Source: an uncultured Candidatus Saccharibacteria bacterium (GTDB taxonomy: Bacteria > Patescibacteriota > Minisyncoccia > Phycocordibacterales > GCA-2401445). Taken from it: a stretch of 64,000 nt of DNA. This document shows positions 22,376 to 61,646 of this stretch, in pieces. Position 1 is the stretch's first letter; each line of letters starts with the position of its first letter. The stretch lies in assembly GCA_964436015.1 (NCBI GenBank), contig CAYTAR010000005.1, positions 17,714-81,713 on the forward strand, written 5' to 3'. The translations under genes were made by a program, and so were the position numbers. Under the pieces are notes generated by a model. The model saw only the letters and a list, made by a program, of their open reading frames with translations, had not been told where the DNA came from and ran no database searches.

Positions 22376-22402
22376 ACCCGTCAGTAATGACGGGTCTTTT
22401 TT
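22376..22402 (+). terminator. rho-independent terminator
   Basis: ACCCGTCA-gtaa-TGACGGGT hairpin followed by CTTTTTTT. Confidence 0.6.
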
Positions 22403-22483
22403 TGGGAGGTAAGAGGGGTTTGCAGAATGTGTCTTTTTTGTTACTATAGTTCTCGTGCATATCGCTTTTGATACGTGCACCAT

Positions 22484-22497
22484 TCCGCGGTAGCTGT
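22484..22497 (+). repeat. duplicated fragment of the tRNA-Asn 5' end
   Basis: ATTCCGCGGTAGCT occurs here and again at the true tRNA start (22573-22586). Confidence 0.4.
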
Positions 22498-22574
22498 CCC
22501 TGCCTGCCGGTAGGCAGGTTGGTAGGTATACGTAACTACCACGAAACGGTATCAAGGAATGCATATAGATTTAT

Positions 22575-22647
22575 TCCGCGGTAGCTCAGTTGGTAGAGCG
22601 TCTCGCTGTTAACGAGAGGGTCCTAGGTTCGAGCCCTAGCCGCGGAG
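22575..22647 (+). tRNA. tRNA-Asn (anticodon GTT)
   Basis: Hand-folded cloverleaf: acceptor TCCGCGG/CCGCGGA, D arm GCTC/GAGC, anticodon loop CTGTTAA, T arm CTAGG-TTCGAGC-CCTAG, discriminator G. Confidence 0.85.
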
Positions 22648-22907
22648 CCGTATAAAAAAATCACCTCTTATATTCTTGAGGTGATTTTTTTATACTTACT
22701 TACACGCGGCAGGGCTCGAACAGGAAAGGGGTCGGGAAAACAGTCGTTTTCCCGTGGAGTGAGAATGCATAGGTATGCATTCGCAAGACCGGAGGCAGAC
22801 GTGCCGAGGTGGGGTCGCAGGCTTTTTCAGCAGAAAAAGACCCGTGACAGGCAGTGAGTCTTCGAACGTTGGAAAACCGTAGGTTTCCAAGGAGTTCGAG
22901 CCCTAGC
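22645..22907 (+). repeat. 263-bp direct repeat copy 1 (att-like; starts at tRNA-Asn 3' end)
   Basis: About 99% identical to 29544..29806 (3 mismatches); begins GAGCC (tRNA 3' end) and ends GGAGTTCGAGCCCTAGC (tRNA T-arm-like core). Confidence 0.9.
22653..22694. terminator. bidirectional terminator just after tRNA-Asn (inside the repeat)
   Basis: AAAAAAATCACCTC-ttatattctt-GAGGTGATTTTTTT perfect 14-bp stem. Confidence 0.7.
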
Positions 22908-22965
22908 TTATATACGAGTACTTTGGATTTTAGAGTGTACTCACGAATAAAATCCTTAGTAACTC

Positions 22966-23034
22966 GTGACCGAGTCCTAGCCGCACACTACACCACAAAA
23001 TTCCAAAAATAATTGTACGTATCCCTGTTTTCTC
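22966..23034 (+). repeat. tRNA-Asn 3'-end-like fragment (F1) plus conserved AT-rich motif (M1)
   Basis: GTGACCGAGTCCTAGCCGCAC matches the tRNA 3' end at 15/16; followed by CAAAAATAATTGTACGTATCCCTGTTTTCTC; the unit recurs at 30020, 30727 and 31991. Confidence 0.7.
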
Positions 23035-23086
23035 TCAAACTCAGCATCTTGTGCTGCCACTGTATGTATATGTAAATCTATCTTTA

Positions 23087-24250
23087 TCATCGATTACCTT
23101 TTGCCCTGTTATGTGTCTTACACAACATCTGGCAATTTTTTGCGTCCGTTGCACCACCCTTACTCCACGCTGCCACATGGTCGGCATCCATGTCGCTTAG
23201 ACCCCAGATTTTCTCTTTGTTGGCATCATGCCCAATTGCACAAAGCGGACAGTTTGATTCGCCCTTTTTCTTTGCTGTGGCAGTTTGAGCTTCATACACT
23301 GAACGTTTGGTTGCATCATCAAACACACGTACATCAAGTAGTTTTGTATCAACTTCACCACCTAAGACGTACTCAAAGATTCCTTTGCGGTTCTTTACGT
23401 ATGCATCACCATAGAGCCGTTGCACTGCTGTGGCTACTTTCTTAGGATCATATTTTTTCTTGTGATAGGTTTCGTAAAGTCTATTCCATTCCAATCCTCT
23501 CATTTCACTCTCAACATCTGTGAATGTTTTGGATACCCAGTCAATGACTTTATCAAAGTGATTCTTTAGCTCCGTAATGTTCTTATCGTTACGATGCTTA
23601 CTCATGTAATTGTCTATGGCACCATCAGAAACCCAGTCTAAAGCTCGCTCCAAATATGCTTGGCGTTTGATGTCACCAGCAATATAGGCACTCCACTTCT
23701 GCACATTGGCGTTTTGACTGTTACTAAACTCTTCACGTGCCTTAGTAACAAAAGGACCCGAATAGACGGCGTTTAAAATCTCCTGCTCAGTTAGCGGCAC
23801 TCCAGCAATATTAATAGTCTTGAACCAATCCTTGATCTCTGGCTCGTCGCCCTCGCACACATACACCAACAATTTGGTGTTTAGTATCTGTTCACGCTGA
23901 CTGTCAGCCATACCGCTGTAGTACTGCTCATGGCCGTTCTTGTCTTTAACAGCAAACTTACCGGTAACAAATCGTCCAATACTGGTAATGCGCTGTTGGC
24001 CATCGAGGACCTCAAATTTGTCTTTTCCAACTTGGTTAAAATAAATCAAACCAATGGGGTATCCCTTCAAAATTGAGTCAATCACAGCAACATCCTTTTT
24101 GCCGTCAGCATAAATATAGTTACGTTGATATTCTGGTTGAATCGTTAGCTTGCCAGACAAACCAAACAAACCCTTTCCTTCCAACTCGTTATACACGAAG
24201 CCGTCGCAAACTTCTTCGATGGTGATGTCATTTTTTAGCGTTGTTTTCAT
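23087..24250 (-). CDS. DUF262 (ParB/GmrS-like) N-terminal domain + C-terminal HNH nuclease (GmrSD-like type IV restriction candidate)
   Basis: DGQQR motif of DUF262; C-terminal CPLC...[10 protein letters not shown]...[13 protein letters not shown] zinc-finger motif. Confidence 0.75.
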
Positions 24251-24252
24251 AA

Positions 24253-25440
24253 CTATTTTTTCTTGTGCTTGATTAAAACTCTCTGATAAACTTTTTCCAG
24301 TAAACCATTGACTTTCACGACTCCGCTAGCGTTAAGATCATAGATGCCTGTCTTGCCAAATTTATCTAGATACGCCTGTTTACATTCTGTAGATGTGTAA
24401 ACTTTGGTTTTTTGTTTATATAAATCCTCATTTTCACACATACCAACAATCTTAAATTGGTCAGGGTTATATTTATCTAGGAAACTAATTGGCACCCCCA
24501 TAACACCACCATAGTCACTAGGAATTGCTTTAGCGAACGGCACCTCAATGGCATCGTAATTTTCATATTTCAAATAGCTCGTTTCTTTCTTTTGTATCTG
24601 CTTATTAAATTTTTTATTTTCTGCCATGGTCATAAATTCAAGTGGTTGGTGACGACGACCATGATCAAGATTAGTAAACCAGCGAACACCCATCACACGC
24701 GCGTAGTGAACGCCATTTTTATCAGTCCGCCAATTGCCAATTTCCTTGAAAATATAATGCGGAACTACAAACTCTCTATCTCCACTACTTATACTTGGTC
24801 CAAGCCAGACCTTATTCTCTTTAATCATTGGAAAAACTTCTTTGTAAGTTATGGCATTCAAGTTACCAATGATTAGAAATTGTTTTTTGTATTCAAAAAG
24901 CTGAGTAATGTACTCACGGAATAAACTAAAGGGAGGATTAGTGACGACAATATCACTTTGCTTGAGAAGCTCCACGCATTCATCACTTCGAAAATCACCG
25001 TCTTCTTCGAGCGGTGCCCACTCGTTATTTTTATTAGCTTTAAGCTGCAAAGCAATGTCTTCAAGTGTGAATGAACCGTCGCCATCAACATCACCAACCT
25101 CGTTGATGATGAACTTGTTTGCGGTAATTTTTGGCCGCCCTTTAGCTGGTTCAAGAGTGACATCGTCACCAAACAGACCGATTTGAGTATTTGCAACCGG
25201 TGAAGGTTTGTAGCTAGTGGTAATGAGCCTCTTTAATCCTAGTCTATTAAAATTTAGAACGAAATATCGAAAGAAATTGCTTTCATATGGATCATCACAA
25301 TTGCTATAAATTACTTTACCCTTGAAAGTATCAGGGTCGTATTCAAGATAAGACTCGATTTCTTTTTGAATGTCCGAATACTGGGTATAAAACTCGTCAT
25401 TCTTTGTCCGCTTTGCGTTTGTAAGATTTTTGTTTGCCAT
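24253..25440 (-). CDS. gamma-class N6-adenine DNA methyltransferase
   Basis: N-terminal DEFYT (HsdM/IIG-like motif) and catalytic VVTNPPF (motif IV). Confidence 0.8.
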
Positions 25441-25445
25441 AACAT

Positions 25446-26435
25446 TTACAGAGTTTTTCTTCGTGTGAGGATCGGCTTAGCATCCAGTGAACCGATAAAG
25501 TAAAAACTATGGTTGAGATAGCTTGCCATTTCTTCTACTTCAGATAATGCATTGTATATAGCATTTCCCAATTCATACTCTTTTGTATTGCATTTGATTA
25601 TCTTGTCGCCAAAGATATCAGTGGCCTCATTCTTATCAATCACAAACCCATGATCCTTGTATTCATATACAAGACGCTCGGCAATATCTTTGGGCGTATT
25701 GGCAAGCTTGCTCGCTCGAGGACTGAGTAATCTTTCCGCATATTGCATTGCAGATTCCGCAACACGTTCGTAGTAACCCACCTGTACTGGTTCAACAGAA
25801 AGATTGAGATACTGCGCAAACATTGAGGCAGATGCGGGATATTTTTTTACAAGACTGGCAATGTGTTCAATTGAATTCTTTAGACCGAGAGCAGGTACCC
25901 TGCGTCCAGAGACTTCAGATTTCATCTGTGGATCAATTGGACCAAGCTCACTCATACTGCCCATATGTATCTCATCAGATGCACACGCTAGAAGAGTAGC
26001 TGCTGACTTAGCATAACGAGGCACAACGGTTACGAATTTCTTATTAGAAAACTCAGAACAAAGTTTCCCAATCAAATATGCTGATCCTGGCTCTCCACCA
26101 CCAGAGAGTAAGATGAGCAGAAGTGGTTTATCGTTGTTGAACTCTGTTATCGCTTCATAGATTTTGTCAGAGTCACCCTTAACCAAAATCGTATTATCGA
26201 ACAGGATTAGAGTATTGAAGTCTTCACCACAATCATGTTTATTAACTTCTTGTCTAAGAAATTTCTTTAAGAGAGCCGAGAACTCATCCTGTTTTGTTCG
26301 AGTCCCGTTTTTACCATAACCATCTACAAGAACGGTAAACAGGTCAACAAAAGATATTTCTTTCTTTTCTGAAGACTTTGGCTGACTGGCCTTAGTTGTC
26401 GTTGCTTTTTTAGGTGTTGGTTTCTTGTTTTTCAT
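25446..26435 (-). CDS. SDH/S49-family Clp-fold serine protease (SppA-like)
   Basis: LLSGGGEPGSAY and ACASDEIHMG blocks typical of the S49/SDH peptidase fold; Lys-rich N-terminus. Confidence 0.6.
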   Translation of the reverse strand: MKNKKPTPKKATTTKASQPKSSEKKEISFVDLFTVLVDGYGKNGTRTKQDEFSALLKKFLRQEVNKHDCGEDFNTLILFDNTILVKGDSDKIYEAITEFNNDKPLLLILLSGGGEPGSAYLIGKLCSEFSNKKFVTVVPRYAKSAATLLACASDEIHMGSMSELGPIDPQMKSEVSGRRVPALGLKNSIEHIASLVKKYPASASMFAQYLNLSVEPVQVGYYERVAESAMQYAERLLSPRASKLANTPKDIAERLVYEYKDHGFVIDKNEATDIFGDKIIKCNTKEYELGNAIYNALSEVEEMASYLNHSFYFIGSLDAKPILTRRKTL

Positions 26436-26437
26436 AC

Positions 26438-27133
26438 TTATTTCTCGTTATCGAGCATAACTTTCAACTGGAAGATTGTATCTGACTTCAGCTTTGCCCG
26501 TGCAGAGTCTTTCTGTGGATCGGACAACAACTCACCAAGACCATCCAAGATGTGCTTGTTATCCATCTTTTCCAGCATATCAATACATTTCTCCAGCGTT
26601 TCTTTGAAAGACATTCCTGAGCGCTGTTCCACTATTTCGCGATTTATTGACCAATTACTCTTAGCAAAGTAATTAACGTCAAACACGTCTCGGCTCGTCT
26701 TGCCGACACGTTCATACATCGCCATGAGTTTGTGGGCAAACATATCCTCCTGGACCATGACGAGCATTGAAATACCCAACAATGTCTTCATCTCGTATCG
26801 TGAGCCAAATTGTCTGCGATTGACCTCGACCTTTATGTTCTGAGCTTTCGGATCATAAGAGACGACATGGAGCAAGTTAAATCTCTTGATGCGAGAGTCG
26901 AGCACTTTGCCATACTCTTTGACAATAGTGCTGACCTTTTCAAACACCTCATCCTCCTTTGATTCGTCCAGCAAATCAAAGTCTAGGTCTACCGAATTAC
27001 GCGGCAAGTCATAGAACATAAGTGCCGCAGTACCACCTTTAAACCCGAGGCAGGGGGCAATGGAGGTATCAGAGTAGATATCTTTCAATATCTGCAACAG
27101 GATATTTTTATGTTTTGAATAGTCTAAGGTCAT
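26438..27133 (-). CDS. abiEii: AbiEii/AbiGii-family nucleotidyltransferase toxin (type IV TA)
   Basis: FKGGTAALMF...RNSVDLDFDL NTase motif; overlaps upstream abiEi stop by 4 nt. Confidence 0.8.
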   Translation of the reverse strand: MTLDYSKHKNILLQILKDIYSDTSIAPCLGFKGGTAALMFYDLPRNSVDLDFDLLDESKEDEVFEKVSTIVKEYGKVLDSRIKRFNLLHVVSYDPKAQNIKVEVNRRQFGSRYEMKTLLGISMLVMVQEDMFAHKLMAMYERVGKTSRDVFDVNYFAKSNWSINREIVEQRSGMSFKETLEKCIDMLEKMDNKHILDGLGELLSDPQKDSARAKLKSDTIFQLKVMLDNEK

Positions 27134-27732
27134 ACGGTTTTTTCTTTGTTATAGGCTTTGAAGTATTCTTTTACTTTCTTCTCCAATCGCTTGTTGTGAT
27201 AGATAGGCGCGATTTTAAAAACCTTATCCCAATCCAAACTAGCCAAGTTATCGAAATGATAGTCTTTGCTCACGTAGATACGATCCAAAAATGCACGTTC
27301 TTTTGTCGCGATCGAGTAGCCCGCTTTGCTTTCAATGCCAGCAGTATTACTCAAGACGTAATCTTTCATGCGGATAAAAGTGATCTTCTGGTCTCCAACT
27401 ATAATTTCGCGATTTACGTATGAGGCAACAAATATATTTCCGTAGTATTGGAAGCTAACCCCCTCACGAGTTAAAACAGTTTCAAAGCTTACATAGGAAG
27501 GCGTATAGATTCTGGTTGCTAACTCAAAGCGATCGTAGTTCTTGTCTTTTGCATACAAGCCACGACGTACTCGAATCAACTTTCCGGCCTTCACATATCG
27601 CTTTAATCGATCAGTGACAACAGAACTATCATCTTCATTCCACAACAAAGCAGCGTCTTTCGTAGAAAAGACTGTCTTGGAAGATCTTAACAAGACCTCT
27701 AAAAATTCTCCTTTTGTTGGTATTTTATCCAT
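27130..27732 (-). CDS. abiEi: AbiEi-family antitoxin/transcriptional regulator
   Basis: Position immediately upstream of and overlapping abiEii; N-terminal winged-helix-like region; internal ATG chosen. Confidence 0.65.
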   Translation of the reverse strand: MDKIPTKGEFLEVLLRSSKTVFSTKDAALLWNEDDSSVVTDRLKRYVKAGKLIRVRRGLYAKDKNYDRFELATRIYTPSYVSFETVLTREGVSFQYYGNIFVASYVNREIIVGDQKITFIRMKDYVLSNTAGIESKAGYSIATKERAFLDRIYVSKDYHFDNLASLDWDKVFKIAPIYHNKRLEKKVKEYFKAYNKEKTV

Positions 27733-27838
27733 TTTCAGTCTAGAAAGGGTATTTAAGTCCCTTTCCAGTAACAATATAGCATATTTTAGATAACTCAACA
27801 AATGGGGATAAGGGGAGAAATAAGCATATCTAGTACAT

Positions 27839-27902
27839 GTCTTATAATATTATAAGACATCATCATGTTGCTGTTTGTCTACTTATAATATTATAAGTAG
27901 AC
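27839..27902. promoter_or_regulatory. two perfect palindromic operators in the divergent abiEi / 27911 promoter region
   Basis: GTCTTATAATATTATAAGAC (20 bp, 27839-27858) and GTCTACTTATAATATTATAAGTAGAC (26 bp, 27877-27902) share the core CTTATAATATTATAAG. Confidence 0.6.
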
Positions 27903-27910
27903 TTTCAGCT

Positions 27911-28879
27911 ATGAAGAAATCTCCCCTAGAACAAGTCAAAGCAAAGCTTAATAAGTACTACTTGGCTGCTTTGACTGCGGAAGAGCTGCAGCTTTATTTT
28001 GACTCGCGACTTGAGAAGGTCTTGCGTGACAAGAAGATCGTAACCCTGCGAGAGCTTGGGTATCTGCTCTGTGAGACTGGTCCGGGTGATCGTCGCTTCG
28101 ATCCACGACACATTCCACTACTTATTCAGGACGGTCTTCTCTCTACTTCCCCGTATGGAAGTATCCCTGAAATTATTGAGCTTGGAGAGAAGAAAAAGAA
28201 AATTGATGAGTATCTCAGAGATAATCAGGATACAGAAGCTGCTAGAAAGCTGATTTTAAAAGTTCTCGCTACCTATGCCAGTGATCTGACAGTGGTCTCG
28301 AAAGATCTGTTTGTTGTGGACGGCATGTTCGGTAAGATTCCAGTTTCTTTTCTTGTTAAGAATGGACAGTGGATACTCCCTGATGAAGAGCTATTTTCCT
28401 TCTTGCAAGAAGCACAGCGTAAAAAACGGCTACCTGTAGTAGTAGCCAGAAAGATATCGGGTATCTTGTTTCCGATGTTCAAAGGTATTTCAGTTTTGGG
28501 ATTGAATCTTTACAAGACGTACCTACCAAAGAATGCCAAAGGACTGGTTGACGCGGCAGTCATTCCTGCCCAGGGTTTTATGAGAAAGTTGCGATACTCC
28601 GGTCAGTTTGAATACCTCACAAAGGACTATATAGAAGGGATTGAAGACGAATATTGGACCGGTGATCCACTCAAGAACTTTTTGGAAGTAATCATGCCCA
28701 GGCATGCAGAAGACTACTATCAGCGTTTTGTTGATCAGAAGATCACTACCGCAGATAACTTCGCTGATACCGTGTCGCAGTTCCGAAAAAACAAAGCCAC
28801 CAAAGGTCTTCTGAATACTTATGAAGCGCAGGAGAATTTGATTCAAGAACTCAGTAAAACAACTAAGAAAGGCTCATGA
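27911..28879 (+). CDS. hypothetical protein (322 aa), divergent from abiEi
   Basis: ATG at 27911 (the ORF track TTG start at 27875 lies inside the operator palindrome); no domain recognised. Confidence 0.5.
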   Translation: MKKSPLEQVKAKLNKYYLAALTAEELQLYFDSRLEKVLRDKKIVTLRELGYLLCETGPGDRRFDPRHIPLLIQDGLLSTSPYGSIPEIIELGEKKKKIDEYLRDNQDTEAARKLILKVLATYASDLTVVSKDLFVVDGMFGKIPVSFLVKNGQWILPDEELFSFLQEAQRKKRLPVVVARKISGILFPMFKGISVLGLNLYKTYLPKNAKGLVDAAVIPAQGFMRKLRYSGQFEYLTKDYIEGIEDEYWTGDPLKNFLEVIMPRHAEDYYQRFVDQKITTADNFADTVSQFRKNKATKGLLNTYEAQENLIQELSKTTKKGS

Positions 28880-29388
28880 AAACGAACGGATGGCACAAAA
28901 GAGTACTGCTGAAACATGCTAAAGAAATAACGACTAATGGGATGACCTATGCAGTCATTGCGCTTGTACTCTTACTCTGGCACTTTGCTCTTGATATGAA
29001 ATTTCAGTGGCAACAGATAGCACCTTTGTCAGAACCAAGTATCTTTGTCCGTGCATTTTACAGCGCATTCACGTTTGGAACATTAGGCCTATTACTGTAT
29101 GTACTCCGCTTTTACAAAGTCTTGCACGACATCATGGTTAAAGCTTTCGGTATGTGGGAACTCTATAACCTGATCAAAGCGGTGATCTGGCTGGGCTTAA
29201 TGTATGTCTCTTATGCCTATCTCGTACCATGGCTATTTAAGTTTTTGAATACTGGAGCGTCTGTTCTTTTCAACATTGCCAACCTGGTGCTATATATCGC
29301 ACCTCCTATAGGTATTGCTTTGATCGTAAGCATTATTTATCTGATCCTCAAAAATAAATTCGCATTGAGACATCGTGCCCCGAAATAA
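28876..29388 (+). CDS. 4-TM membrane protein, translationally coupled to the upstream hypothetical
   Basis: ATGA overlap; four hydrophobic helices; no domain recognised. Confidence 0.5.
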   Translation: MKTNGWHKRVLLKHAKEITTNGMTYAVIALVLLLWHFALDMKFQWQQIAPLSEPSIFVRAFYSAFTFGTLGLLLYVLRFYKVLHDIMVKAFGMWELYNLIKAVIWLGLMYVSYAYLVPWLFKFLNTGASVLFNIANLVLYIAPPIGIALIVSIIYLILKNKFALRHRAPK

Positions 29389-29543: not shown

Positions 29544-29806
29544 GAGCCGTATAAAAAAATCACCTCTTATATTCTTGAGGTGATTTTTTTATACTTACTT
29601 ACACGCGGCAGGGCTCGAACAGGAAAGGGGTCGGGAAAACAGTCGTTTTCCCGTGGAGTGAGAATGCATAGGTATGCATTCGCAAGACCGGAGGCAGACG
29701 TGCCGAGGTGGGGTCGCAGGCTTTTTCAGCAGAAAAAGACCTGTGATAGGCAGTGAGTCTTCGAGCGTTGGAAAACCGTAGGTTTCCAAGGAGTTCGAGC
29801 CCTAGC
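29544..29806 (+). repeat. 263-bp direct repeat copy 2
   Basis: Identical to 22645..22907 apart from 3 mismatches; includes the same terminator hairpin (29552-29593). Confidence 0.9.
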
Positions 29807-30019
29807 ATTTATGTGTATTCGAAAGACGGAGCGTACGAAGTCGCCTTCTTAGGCGTGCGCGAGTCGGGTGAGAAGCGAACACTTGGAGCTTTGCAAGACC
29901 TTTTGAGCTGTTTTGTGAGTGAAGCGAAATAAAAGAGTCAAAAGGTGTACAGAATCTGTAAGATTCGCGAACACTTAGTCCGCACAGTGTGCAAAGCACA
30001 TGAGCAGACTTAGTGATTT

Positions 30020-30088
30020 GTGACCGAGTCCTAGCCGCACGCTATACCACATAACTTCAAAAATAATTGTACTTATCCCTGTTTTCTC
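30020..30088 (+). repeat. tRNA-Asn 3'-end-like fragment (F2) + motif M2
   Basis: GTGACCGAGTCCTAGCCGCAC then CAAAAATAATTGTACTTATCCCTGTTTTCTC. Confidence 0.7.
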
Positions 30089-30181: not shown

Positions 30182-30514
30182 ATGAACAAGACACCTATTC
30201 CCTGCCGCTGTGGAAGAAATCCAGAGGTGAACACTAACCTACGTGGATATCGACACTCTATTTCATGTAAATGCGGGACAAGTGAAATAAACTTCATCAC
30301 GTGGTCCGACAACGAACAGAAACTACAGGACAACTGGGAATCCCTTATCAGGGGTACACCCTACAAACATAGCGTCCAACACCTGCCAAATCCAGAAGCT
30401 GAGATGCAGGTATATGTGGCGACAATTGGTAGTGAGAATTACGATACTAACCCACTTCGCCGATACATTCGGGCAACTGGAGGCCACTGCTCAGGCGGCG
30501 GTGGTCCTTGCTAA
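30182..30514 (+). CDS. hypothetical zinc-ribbon protein (CxC...CxC)
   Basis: PCRCG...SCKCG pairs of cysteines; a terminator-like hairpin follows (about 30529-30570). Confidence 0.35.
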   Translation: MNKTPIPCRCGRNPEVNTNLRGYRHSISCKCGTSEINFITWSDNEQKLQDNWESLIRGTPYKHSVQHLPNPEAEMQVYVATIGSENYDTNPLRRYIRATGGHCSGGGGPC

Positions 30515-30726: not shown

Positions 30727-30788
30727 CGAAGCCCTAGTCGCACACTACACCACAAAATTTCAAAAATAATTGTACTTATCCTTATTCT
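30727..30788 (+). repeat. tRNA-Asn 3'-end-like fragment (F3) + degenerate motif M3
   Basis: GAAGCCCTAGTCGCAC then CACCACAAAATTTCAAAAATAATTGTACTTATCC. Confidence 0.6.
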
Positions 30789-30895
30789 TCTATGATTTGA
30801 CAAATACTACAATTAATGCTCTACTTAGACTTAGAAGCAATGACCGGATAAGTGTCCGAAAACAGGCTTATACTTGAACCTACAATAAAAGGACT

Positions 30896-31303
30896 ATGTC
30901 GAGCACAATGGCAGACGCGCTAAGTAAAGTTGGACTGATTACTGAGCAGGAAAAATACCGGTTACTCGCAGACCAGGCCCACTCAATCGCTGAACGTGAA
31001 GCGCTGTGGAAGAAAACTGCGAGTATGGGGAATCAAACGGAGCACCTTGCTCTTGTTCAGAATTGCTCAGCAATTAGTGAGTTCAAGGATTCCGCGAGAA
31101 AACTTCTCTGCGAATATCCCGAGTTGGCAGGTGATGTTGTAAAGGCTTCACAACGATTCAAAGAACAAAAAGGTGGAGACAAGTTGGTATGTCTGTGCGG
31201 CCAGGTAGAAACCCTGTTACGGCAAATTCAACCAACGAAACGCGAGCGCTTTCTCAAACGAGCGTTCCGTTGCGCAGATAGCACTGTTCCCATTCACTAC
31301 TAA
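30896..31303 (+). CDS. hypothetical protein (135 aa)
   Basis: ORF with its own terminator; no domain recognised. Confidence 0.45.
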   Translation: MSSTMADALSKVGLITEQEKYRLLADQAHSIAEREALWKKTASMGNQTEHLALVQNCSAISEFKDSARKLLCEYPELAGDVVKASQRFKEQKGGDKLVCLCGQVETLLRQIQPTKRERFLKRAFRCADSTVPIHY

Positions 31304-31525: not shown

Positions 31526-31846
31526 TTGAAAAATACATCAAAAACAGATAAGAGAATGGAGTTAATTATGGCCAGAACATTAAGAGTAGTAAGTTGTCCC
31601 GACCGCCTAAAACTGGCGTTTTGTCTCCTTGAAGGGGACAATAAAAATCAGGCCCCAGTACAGTTCATGGTTAAGGAGAACGATGGCGAAAATCAATGGG
31701 CAGAGTATGTAAATCTTGACAGCATAGGAAGGGAAGACGGGAGTGGAGGTAATTTCAACCTAACTGGATGGAATACCGCAAACAAAGCTCGCGTCAGGAT
31801 TTTCCTTTCACTTAAACACCGCTCTGGCGTGATGACTTTCGAGTAG
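31526..31846 (+). CDS. hypothetical protein (106 aa; alternative start at 31556)
   Basis: ORF with its own promoter-like boxes and terminator; no domain recognised. Confidence 0.4.
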   Translation: MKNTSKTDKRMELIMARTLRVVSCPDRLKLAFCLLEGDNKNQAPVQFMVKENDGENQWAEYVNLDSIGREDGSGGNFNLTGWNTANKARVRIFLSLKHRSGVMTFE

Positions 31847-31990: not shown

Positions 31991-32054
31991 GAAAAATAAT
32001 TGTACTTACCCCTGTTTTCTTCTTATCCCTGTTTTCTTATCCCTGTTTTCTCTC
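31991..32054 (+). repeat. motif M4 with a triplicated TATCCCTGTTTTCT unit
   Basis: GAAAAATAATTGTACTTACCCCTGTTTTCTTCTTATCCCTGTTTTCTTATCCCTGTTTTCTCTC. Confidence 0.7.
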
Positions 32055-60375: not shown

Positions 60376-60609
60376 AACAGAGATTAGAGAGAAGAGATTA
60401 GAGATTAGAAAGGAAAGAGACAAGAGGAAAAACAGAGATCAGAGAGAAGAGATTAGAGATTAGAAAAAGAAAAGAAAGAGAAATTTAGGAATGATGTTTA
60501 TTTTCTTATAGAAACCCTTATCTTACGATATATCGTAAAATATAGGAAAAGTGAAAAGAAAAATGGTAAGCATAGAACAGAGATTGGTGATTGGAGATTA
60601 GAATTGAGA
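60375..60609 (+). repeat. purine-rich degenerate tandem repeat (about 36-nt unit, 3 copies)
   Basis: GAACAGAGAT(T/C)AGAGAGAAGAGATTAGAGATTAGAAA at 60375 and 60431, degenerate copy at 60573; multiple GGA triplets. Confidence 0.6.
60523..60538. promoter_or_regulatory. palindrome TTACGATATATCGTAA (copy 1 of a 4-member family)
   Basis: Related perfect palindromes at 60657..60678 (CTGTAGCGATATATCGCTACAG), 61276..61293 (CATACGATATATCGTATG) and 61434..61459 (ATATCTTACGATATATCGTAAGATAT). Confidence 0.5.
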
Positions 60610-60877
60610 ATAAAGATATAAAATATCGATTAAAAGATAAAAAAGGAAATATAAATCTGTAGCGATATATCGCTACAGATTGCTCTCTAAAAATAAACAG
60701 CACCTATTGATGCTGTTTATTTTTACGCTTTGTGTCACAAGTTACTAAGTCTGCTCCTGTGCTCCGCACGGTGCGCGGACTAAGTACTCGCGACACCGTC
60801 TCGCCTGTCGCAAAGCGACACGGCTCCGACTTCACACTTCGCTCGCACGCAAAGCAGTTTGCGTGCTTTACGCTCGT

Positions 60878-60896
60878 GTGACCCTACGGGGAATCG
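60878..60896 (-). repeat. 19-nt duplicate of the tRNA-Glu 3' end
   Basis: GTGACCCTACGGGGAATCG is identical to 61094..61112 in the tRNA-Glu gene; in direct orientation relative to it. Confidence 0.6.
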
Positions 60897-61028
60897 GTAA
60901 CGCATAAATTTCCTGACGGAAATTTTGCGCGACCCCGCCTCATCTGTTTCTGCCTTGAGCAAAAGGCTCAAACAGAAACATGACTGCGGCTTTCGATTCC
61001 CCGCCGCAAGGTGTGCAGACACTTTGCT

Positions 61029-61102
61029 TAGGGTCACCGCAATATTCAAAAACAAAAATGCGCTAAGCGCATTTTTGTTAAGAATATATAGCGGTGACCC
61101 TA
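61029..61102. repeat. about 74-bp near-perfect palindrome whose right arm is the tRNA-Glu 3' acceptor end
   Basis: TAGGGTCACCGC (61029-61040) is the reverse complement of GCGGTGACCCTA (61091-61102); the inner arms also pair around the centre GCGCTAAGCGC. Confidence 0.6.
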
Positions 61103-61166
61103 CGGGGAATCGAACCCCGATTTAAGCCTTGAGAAGGCCTTGTCCTAACCGTTAGACGATAGGGCC
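61095..61166 (-). tRNA. tRNA-Glu (anticodon CTC)
   Basis: Reverse-complement cloverleaf: acceptor GGCCCTA/TAGGGTC (one G-U pair), anticodon loop TTCTCAA, T arm CGGGG-TTCGATT-CCCCG, discriminator A; CC encoded at 61093-61094. Confidence 0.8.
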
Positions 61167-61176
61167 AATGCGACAA

Positions 61177-61205
61177 AATATAGCAGAGTGAATGCTTTTT
61201 GACAA
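61177..61205 (-). promoter_or_regulatory. sigma70-like promoter for tRNA-Glu
   Basis: On the minus strand, TTGTCA - 17 nt - TATATT, ending about 11 nt upstream of the tRNA 5' end. Confidence 0.4.
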
Positions 61206-61646
61206 TGGATATATAATCCAGTTAAGTGCACCTCATATACAATTTTTTAGAATTGAAGTCTAAGAAAATCCATACCATACGATATATCGTATGATATGAA
61301 GGTAAAAGAAAAAAGGGTTCTAGAGAGACGATATAACCTGCACAGAGGATTGCAAATTTCCCGCCATCCCGCTGACATGTATAGGTTAAAAAAATACGTA
61401 ACTGTACTAATTTTTAACAAGTATTTGATAACCATATCTTACGATATATCGTAAGATATGACTGAGTTACAAAAACAATCAAAATATTTTCAATCACCAT
61501 ACAATCTGATTTGCGCCAAGAAATGAATTTAAAAAGTATGTGTGGGGGGTATGAATTCGCAAAAAGTGATTTTAGAAATACGTACATAGAATTTAAGTCC
61601 AAAAACAAAACTTGAAAAACCCTATAAAATATGTTCTAATTGCGAA

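Follow-up and report, generated by a model that had tools for sequence, protein, structure and literature searches.

Candidate recombination-site modules built from inverted and direct copies of tRNA 3' ends in a Candidatus Paceibacterota lineage

There is nothing unusual about islands linked to tRNA genes, displaced fragments of tRNAs or arrays in tandem (PMC4383910; 10.1101/2020.12.28.424599). The locus described here, which lies in a 64-kb stretch of DNA (the window), has much in common with the tyrosine-integrase islands of Islander (PMC4383910) and with the tandem arrays of tycheposons (10.1101/2020.12.28.424599): one end has an intact, regenerated tRNA, the junctions are marked by displaced stretches of the tRNA 3' end that begin in the T loop, the cargo is accessory (here defensive), and several modules have accreted in tandem at one tRNA. 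It departs from them in four respects: no integrase gene is found within or beside the array, the arm contains a copy of the tRNA end in inverted orientation, two different tRNA cores share one conserved arm, and some units are cargo-less miniatures of 200-270 bp. To our knowledge, no inverted core copy has been described for classical tRNA-island att sites.

Integron attC sites, the second point of comparison, are 57-141 nt long (PMC2727003, PMC3458562). Akin to an attC site, the module is an imperfect palindrome whose inverted ends (…AAC / GTT…) surround a variable, structured middle, and near-identical copies are found along an array of cassettes without a recombinase of their own. When CTCGAAC ... 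GTTCGAG is set against the attC boxes RYYYAAC/GTTRRRY, AAC and GTT are kept but only 5/7 positions agree in each box. As opposed to integrons, the locus lacks IntI, attI and Pc, its ends come from a tRNA gene, the cassettes have promoter-like and terminator-like sequences of their own, and the unit from the inverted copy to the direct one measures ~200 nt.

A third system is CTXphi, whose attP(+) site, as reportedly described by Val et al. in 2005, has two inverted copies of the target ~100 nt apart that fold into a mimic of the duplex target; such Xer-dependent elements are said to have the inverted pair at one element end after integration, to form tandem arrays and to carry no recombinase of their own. 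Our locus shares with it inverted target copies able to mimic the target, their position at one end, the tandem array and the lack of an element-encoded recombinase, and differs in that the target is the T arm and acceptor end of a tRNA and not dif. Helices of 13-22 bp between inverted and direct copies do reproduce the tRNA gene end, as in a CTXphi-type fold, at the Asn and Glu loci of the window and in contig L129 of a related genome (see below). Repeats of the MITE or REP type resemble the module in their small size, lack of coding sequence, dense structure and inverted ends, whereas here the ends copy the adjacent tRNA, no target is duplicated and the copies are not dispersed. Our literature searches turned up no earlier case of a folded att site aimed at a tRNA, nor could we find an inverted tRNA-end copy, a terminator-centred palindrome, cargo-less units of 200-270 bp or one arm with two tRNA cores.

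Anatomy of the repeat at tRNA-Asn and of its counterpart at tRNA-Glu

The initial annotation had described a densely structured 263-bp repeat with self-closing ends. The repeat (R) is real and strongly folded: a second copy (R') was found, and 4/4 of the listed hairpins as well as the 10-bp complementarity of the ends are present (Table 1). R, 263 nt long, starts in the last five bases of tRNA-Asn. R' is 98.9% identical to it over the 263 nt, with three mismatches that are all transitions, and has in front of it CCGTC, which matches the acceptor end of the tRNA in diverged form; no third copy was found in the window. The 64-aa open reading frames embedded in the two copies (22696..22890 and 29595..29789) had been regarded as artefacts, and the absence of a Pfam match is consistent with this.

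Table 1. Positions of the tRNA genes, modules and cargo in the window.
Feature	Position	Strand	Details
tRNA-Asn(GTT)	22575-22647/9	+	ARAGORN; Rfam tRNA, 69.3 bits
c_tRNA	22627-22645	+	tRNA-Asn 3' end, T loop to acceptor; source of the module copies
R, copy 1	22645-22907	+	last tRNA bases, terminator, c*, hairpins H1-H4, c1
Terminator hairpin	22650-22695		bidirectional, Rho-independent type; A7...T7; perfect 18-nt arms 22650-22667/22678-22695
c*	22705-22725	+	3' end of the tRNA-Asn gene, inverted
Hairpin-rich spacer (H1-H4)	22726-22893		between c* and c1
H1	22734-22753		GGGAAAAC-AGTC-GTTTTCCC
H2	22763-22782		GAATGCATA-GG-TATGCATTC
H3	22822-22839		CTTTTTC-AGCA-GAAAAAG, inside a longer stem
H4	22869-22890		TTGGAAA...TTTCCAA
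c1	22894-22907	+	GTTCGAGCCCTAGC; 14 nt copied in direct orientation from the T loop and 3' T stem (22627-40) of the tRNA
Arm, long hairpin (LH)	22915-22970	+	ends CTTAGTAACTCGTGAC
c2	22971-22986	+	CGAGTCCTAGCCGCAC; degenerate tRNA-3'-end core right after the arm
Module-boundary motif	23005-23033 (+), 30059-30087, 30762-30790, from 31992		AAAAATAATTGTACKTAYCCCTGTTTTCT
Cargo between the R copies	23087-29388		five - strand genes, two + strand ORFs
Cargo: type II R-M pair		-	type II REase-like GmrSD/HNH; EcoRI-like MTase
Cargo: protease		-	SDH-type (SDH/ClpP-like)
Cargo: AbiEii + AbiEi pair		-	
Cargo: ORFs of 334 aa and 170 aa		+	the latter membrane
R, copy 2 (R')	29544-29806	+	c* 29604-29620, c1 29793-29806
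Second arm and c2'	29807-30040	+	spacer S', hairpin LH' ending CTTAGTGATTTGTGAC; c2' 30025-30040
Orphan cassette ORFs (110, 135, 106 aa)	30182-30514, 30896-31303, 31526-31846		
Arm after the tRNA-Glu module	60734-60877	-	same family; ends CTTAGTAACTTGTGAC
Module after tRNA-Glu	60878-61092	-	equivalent to the Asn module
Glu-module direct copy	60896-60878	-	19 nt; CGATTCCCCGTAGGGTCAC
Glu-module c*	61040-61029 and 61003-60992	-	two 12-mers, reverse complement of the tRNA-Glu 3' end
Glu-module terminator	61076-61054	-	
tRNA-Glu	61093-61166	-	

The inverted copy on the left of R (c*) reads CGCGGC-AGGGCTCGAAC(--)AGGA, the reverse complement of TCCT(AG)GTTCGAGCCCT(A)GCCGCG; on reading, this copy and its flanks correspond to the reverse complement of the last ~27 nt of the tRNA gene, minus two small deletions. 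On the right, the direct copy c1 is followed by TTAT and not by the rest of the tRNA end, and because of this the history of the module is not that of a simple attL/attR pair. The segment GGGCTCGAAC (22712-22721) of the inverted copy is perfectly complementary to GTTCGAGCCC (22894-22903) of c1, so that the "closing helix" of R joins two copies of the tRNA 3' end, one inverted and one direct.

Folded as RNA, the region 22700-22915 reached -88.8 kcal/mol on the + strand (z = -6.2) and -80.2 kcal/mol on the - strand (z = -6.1), with 0/200 shuffled controls as good. When the tRNA end was included, the minimum-energy DNA fold paired the inverted copy with the tRNA gene (22621-22645) and not with c1, producing a palindrome of ~100 nt, made of tRNA, terminator and inverted copy, with the terminator as its tip (22618-22730 as DNA: -39.1 kcal/mol, z = -12.4); the same pairing was preferred in the fold of the longer region 22618-22915. 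The earlier suggestion that the ends of R could close a long-range helix is therefore borne out as regards their complementarity, which is perfect, but this helix is one of two mutually exclusive pairings, and that of the inverted copy with the tRNA wins. On the 5' side of the gene, the first 14 nt of tRNA-Asn (ATTCCGCGGTAGCT) are present twice, at 22482-95 and 22573-86, and the copies are separated by a 77-nt insert with two hairpins that parts the conserved promoter region from the tRNA and is absent from contig L119 of the related genome; this insert (22482-22586) looks like a second small insertion.

The module that follows tRNA-Glu, the other tRNA of the window, has the same order of parts as that at tRNA-Asn, namely terminator, inverted copy, hairpins and direct copy, each module being written in the sequence of its own tRNA. 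A 25-nt side hairpin splits the Glu inverted copy into its two 12-mers, two hairpins lie between it and the direct copy, and it copies the CCGC past the discriminator, which is the sequence of the gene and not the mature CCA end. The Glu module is also self-closing (DNA: -55.6 kcal/mol, z = -9.0; RNA: z = -7.7), and tRNA-Glu, too, forms a palindrome with its terminator and inverted copy (z = -10.3); fold z-scores across the Asn and Glu modules range from -7.7 to -12.4. By eye, the two modules share short motifs only, e.g. GAGGYGGGGTCGC, followed by an A/T-rich hairpin and GTKAC. Between the Glu module and the upstream gene, at 60379-60459, we also note a CT/AG-rich 14-nt tandem repeat of ~6 copies (AGAGATTAGAGAGA).

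The related genome, the conserved arm and the cargo

The evidence for the module family comes from two genomes, that of the window and the related Paceibacterota MAG GCA_040879725.1, whose contigs L119, L129 and L131 are considered here. The protein adjoining tRNA-Asn has as its next best match, after the exact one, proteins 53% identical in Candidatus Paceibacterota MAGs, and GCA_040879725.1 is syntenic with the window on both sides of the tRNA-Asn locus. L119 carries a tRNA-Asn identical to that of the window and stops 47 nt past it, while L129 carries the right-hand housekeeping block and opens with cargo, followed by a terminator. Positions 106-121 of L129 are a perfect 16-nt inverted copy of the tRNA-Asn end (0.02 expected by chance), which is separated by 111 nt with two hairpins from an exact 20-nt direct tRNA fragment (233-252), itself followed by a terminator; the inverted and direct copies close a 16-bp helix (z = -6.2). 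As far as its sequence tells, this end of the tRNA-Asn island is an attR-type junction. The inverted copies of the window and of L129 at tRNA-Asn have the same small deletion after CTCGAA, from which we infer that the inverted copy was inherited with the element and not made in place.

No empty tRNA-Asn site was seen, the sole syntenic relative being occupied as well, with contigs that break there; more distant relatives, reached through homologs of the NAD-binding protein or Obg, were without synteny or without the tRNA, exact-protein look-ups for proteins of the window yielded no record, and these proteins form singleton clusters. All three contigs of GCA_040879725.1 stop at or inside tRNA-linked modules (L119 1-47, L129 1-20, L131 1-47), as expected for multi-copy repeats. 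The start of L129 shows a seventh arm-like end, CTTAGTCACTTCGTGAC.

The arm that follows the module is conserved. Its copy at 22915-22970 is 82% identical to L129 178-246, and L131 1-47 differs by 1 nt from 22921-22970 of the window, whereas orthologous proteins of the two genomes are 53-74% identical; such near-identity in diverged genomes points to recent transfer or to strong constraint or selection. Six copies of the arm ...CTTAGTRAYTYGTGAC were found in the two genomes. GTGAC is followed by the Asn core, CGAG..., in L129 and in two of the copies in the window, by the Glu core, CGATTCCCCGTAGC, in L131, beside Obg, and by unrelated sequence at the Glu locus of the window and in L131. Where a tRNA core is present after the arm, T-loop position C56 is always its first base. 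In the arm, the central hairpin, as read by eye from the alignment and with no statistics attached, varies in sequence among the copies with its pairing kept (GAGT/ACTC, GCGAGC/GCTCG, GTGC/GCAC). The pattern of the degenerate tRNA-3'-end core matched 3 times, against 0.11 expected. We also observed that the tRNA-Glu core is oriented oppositely with respect to Obg in the two genomes, towards Obg in L131 and, for the tRNA in the window region 61093-61646, away from it, which suggests an inversion or rearrangement involving these sites.

R and R' bracket a 6.6-kb defence island, and the whole array is flanked by housekeeping genes on both sides, the upstream neighbours being enolase, iPGM and a NAD-binding protein. 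In the libraries searched, no relatives of the 334-aa and 170-aa cargo ORFs could be detected. R' is followed by a series of short cassettes that each have promoter-like and terminator-like sequences and are separated by tRNA-end-like cores (30725, 31406) and by the motif AAAAATAATTGTACKTAYCCCTGTTTTCT. This motif has four matches, against 0 expected, and marks four module boundaries. At 32000-32051, TTATCCCTGTTTTCT is present in three tandem copies; the thought that the ATAA-TTGTAC-TTAT centre is like a tyrosine-recombinase or dif-type core is only an idea. The three orphan ORFs of the cassettes each have a TTGACT-type promoter-like sequence and a terminator hairpin, and none matched a family in Pfam, PADLOC, NCBIfam or PHROGs.

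The intact tRNAs of these loci are thus accompanied by displaced 3'-end copies, as in tRNA islands (c1, c2 and c2', the 20-nt fragment of L129 and the 19-nt copy at Glu); an integrase inside the island beside the att site, which tRNA islands would also have, was not found. Indeed, searches with Pfam, PADLOC, NCBIfam, PHROGs and PDB sequences over ORFs of at least 120 aa detected no integrase or recombinase in the 64 kb. We rejected the idea that the 334-aa ORF next to R' is a hidden integrase, since it matches no family and no PDB entry and an H-x-x-R motif could not be made out by eye.

DNA site, RNA gene or remnant

R was sought widely outside the two genomes. A scan of 185,579 species-representative genomes with the pattern GGGCTCGAAC-N155-185-GTTCGAGCCC returned 112 matches, all of them chance occurrences in high-GC genomes in which BLAST found no homology to R. 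In viral contigs the end pair had 2 chance matches in coding DNA, a 22-mer of the tRNA end matched a jumbo-phage tRNA cluster only, and patterns for H1+H2, for the pair of inverted and direct copies as in L129, for the arm plus core, for the boundary motif and for the arm had no match. A metagenome scan with a 22-mer of the inverted copy and its junction yielded 3 chance matches in one high-GC gene family, and no match came from blastn against phage and plasmid collections, run with R, with the Glu module and with the arm.

In light of these data we consider it probable, at a moderate level of confidence, that R is a DNA-level recombination-site (att) module of small tRNA-targeting integrative elements of the Candidatus Paceibacterota lineage. 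Speaking for this are the anatomy of the module, its tRNA-specific re-writing at Glu, its arrangement in the second genome, the arm joined to different tRNA cores, the defence cargo and cassettes beside R and R', and the lack of RNA-family evidence. The initial annotation had offered an att arm or a small ncRNA; the att half of that proposal is supported, and sharpened, by the tRNA-end copies, while the ncRNA half found no support. A structured ncRNA of ~200 nt, riding with the element, would start past the tRNA terminator, be closed by the helix of the inverted copy with c1 and have a 5' segment antisense to the 3' half of the tRNA. The strong fold would agree with it, as would a GC content of 55% in the structured part of R, against 42.5% for the window, a -10-like hexamer TATACT at 22691-22696 that would place the start near 22703, and two of the differences between R and R', namely a G-C pair that becomes G-U on the + strand and an A.C mismatch that becomes paired (with the last one unpaired, the three differences are ambiguous). 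On the other hand, no -35 element was seen and no promoter was called on the + strand, and there is no terminator past c1 and no strand asymmetry, the + strand folding no better than the - strand. All four hairpins form perfect palindromes, the loop of one being 2 nt long, and G-U accounts for 4/70 predicted pairs and for none (0) in H1-H4, which are Watson-Crick only. The H1-H4 interior has no counterpart in the homologous modules, that is, at Glu or in L129, nor a homolog in any collection searched, and the CCGC copied at Glu is encoded by the gene beyond the end of the mature tRNA. Rfam, which had been proposed as the check for a known RNA family, did not identify one: the whole window gave tRNA matches only at the gathering threshold, and a permissive scan of 22400-23100 gave chance-level miRNA and sRNA matches only, far below threshold. 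An RNA gene therefore appears very unlikely to us. Readings of R as a tRNA-like RNA, tmRNA or Y RNA were likewise rejected, ARAGORN and Rfam being negative and the T-loop sequence being sequestered in a helix, as was a retroviral-type primer-binding site for the inverted copy, which at Asn misses the terminal bases of the tRNA and at Glu copies CCGC, not CCA.

The modules could also be scars without function, in which the inverted copy and the hairpins were left behind as a recombination hot spot went through successive rounds of integration, excision and repair, fold-back or hairpin-primed synthesis at the terminator having generated an inverted duplication that was kept without a role. This would explain the mosaic of degenerate tRNA-end fragments at 22971, 30025, 30725 and 31406, the 14-nt duplicate of the tRNA 5' end upstream, the palindrome centred exactly on the terminator and extending into the tRNA, and the lack of conservation of the H1-H4 interior. 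It fits poorly with an ordered layout that is the same at two tRNAs and in a second genome, with a deletion in the inverted copy that is common to the window and L129 and so speaks for inheritance with the element, and with an arm nearly identical across diverged genomes, which speaks for selection or recent transfer; we regard it as unlikely. Far less probable still is a MITE-like repeat with terminal inverted repeats of 13/14 bp, mobilized by a transposase in trans. Such a repeat would have the terminal inverted repeats, the structured interior and the two near-identical copies seen here, but no target site is duplicated (the flanks, ACGCG and TTATA, differ), both copies lie in one tRNA-linked array, and the supposed terminal repeats are copies of the neighbouring tRNA that switch to tRNA-Glu sequence at the other locus; moreover, no further copies were found in the window, in the 185,579 genomes (end pair) or in the viral, plasmid and phage collections.

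Proposed operation of the att modules and implications

If R is an att module, the elements would insert into the T loop and 3' end of tRNA genes, and the module would restore the last tRNA bases and supply a replacement terminator. Next in order would come the inverted copy, the hairpin-rich spacer, the direct and partial copy c1, the arm ...CTTAGTAACTCGTGAC and a further tRNA-3'-end core. The inverted copy may pair either with the end of the tRNA gene, as in the ~100-nt palindrome, or with c1, as in the closing helix, and the inverted pair may mimic the duplex target by folding into a hairpin or cruciform. R and R' would represent successive junctions of a tandem array, and recombination between them could excise or re-insert the defence island; because R and R' are so alike over their 263 nt, site-specific and homologous recombination would be indistinguishable here. 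A recombinase encoded outside the window would act on these sites, probably a tyrosine recombinase that cuts the T loop just before C56.

In a further version, which from analogy with the systems discussed above we entertain only tentatively and consider doubtful, the att site would be a folded single strand. The inverted copy would pair with the tRNA 3' end as copied in the element and rebuild a replica of the duplex target, with the terminator hairpin or the H1-H4 spacer as the tip. Integration, akin to that of attC or of CTXphi attP, would target different tRNAs in their conserved T loop and be resolved by replication, with the recombinase again encoded elsewhere; this would fit the DNA-uptake lifestyle of Patescibacteria.

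Returning to the att module in general, if the reading is true it would represent a site architecture new for tRNA-targeting elements, in which the 3' end of the target is copied both inverted and direct around a terminator. That the same arm is found with two tRNA cores hints at recognition of the conserved T loop by the recombinase and at a tRNA-specific repair sequence carried as a swappable part. Palindromic modules of this kind, present in several copies, probably break short-read assemblies at tRNA loci, and in structure-based screens they may be mistaken for ncRNA genes. Should R be a working att site, ultra-small CPR genomes would be able to gain and lose defence genes at tRNAs without an integrase for each island.
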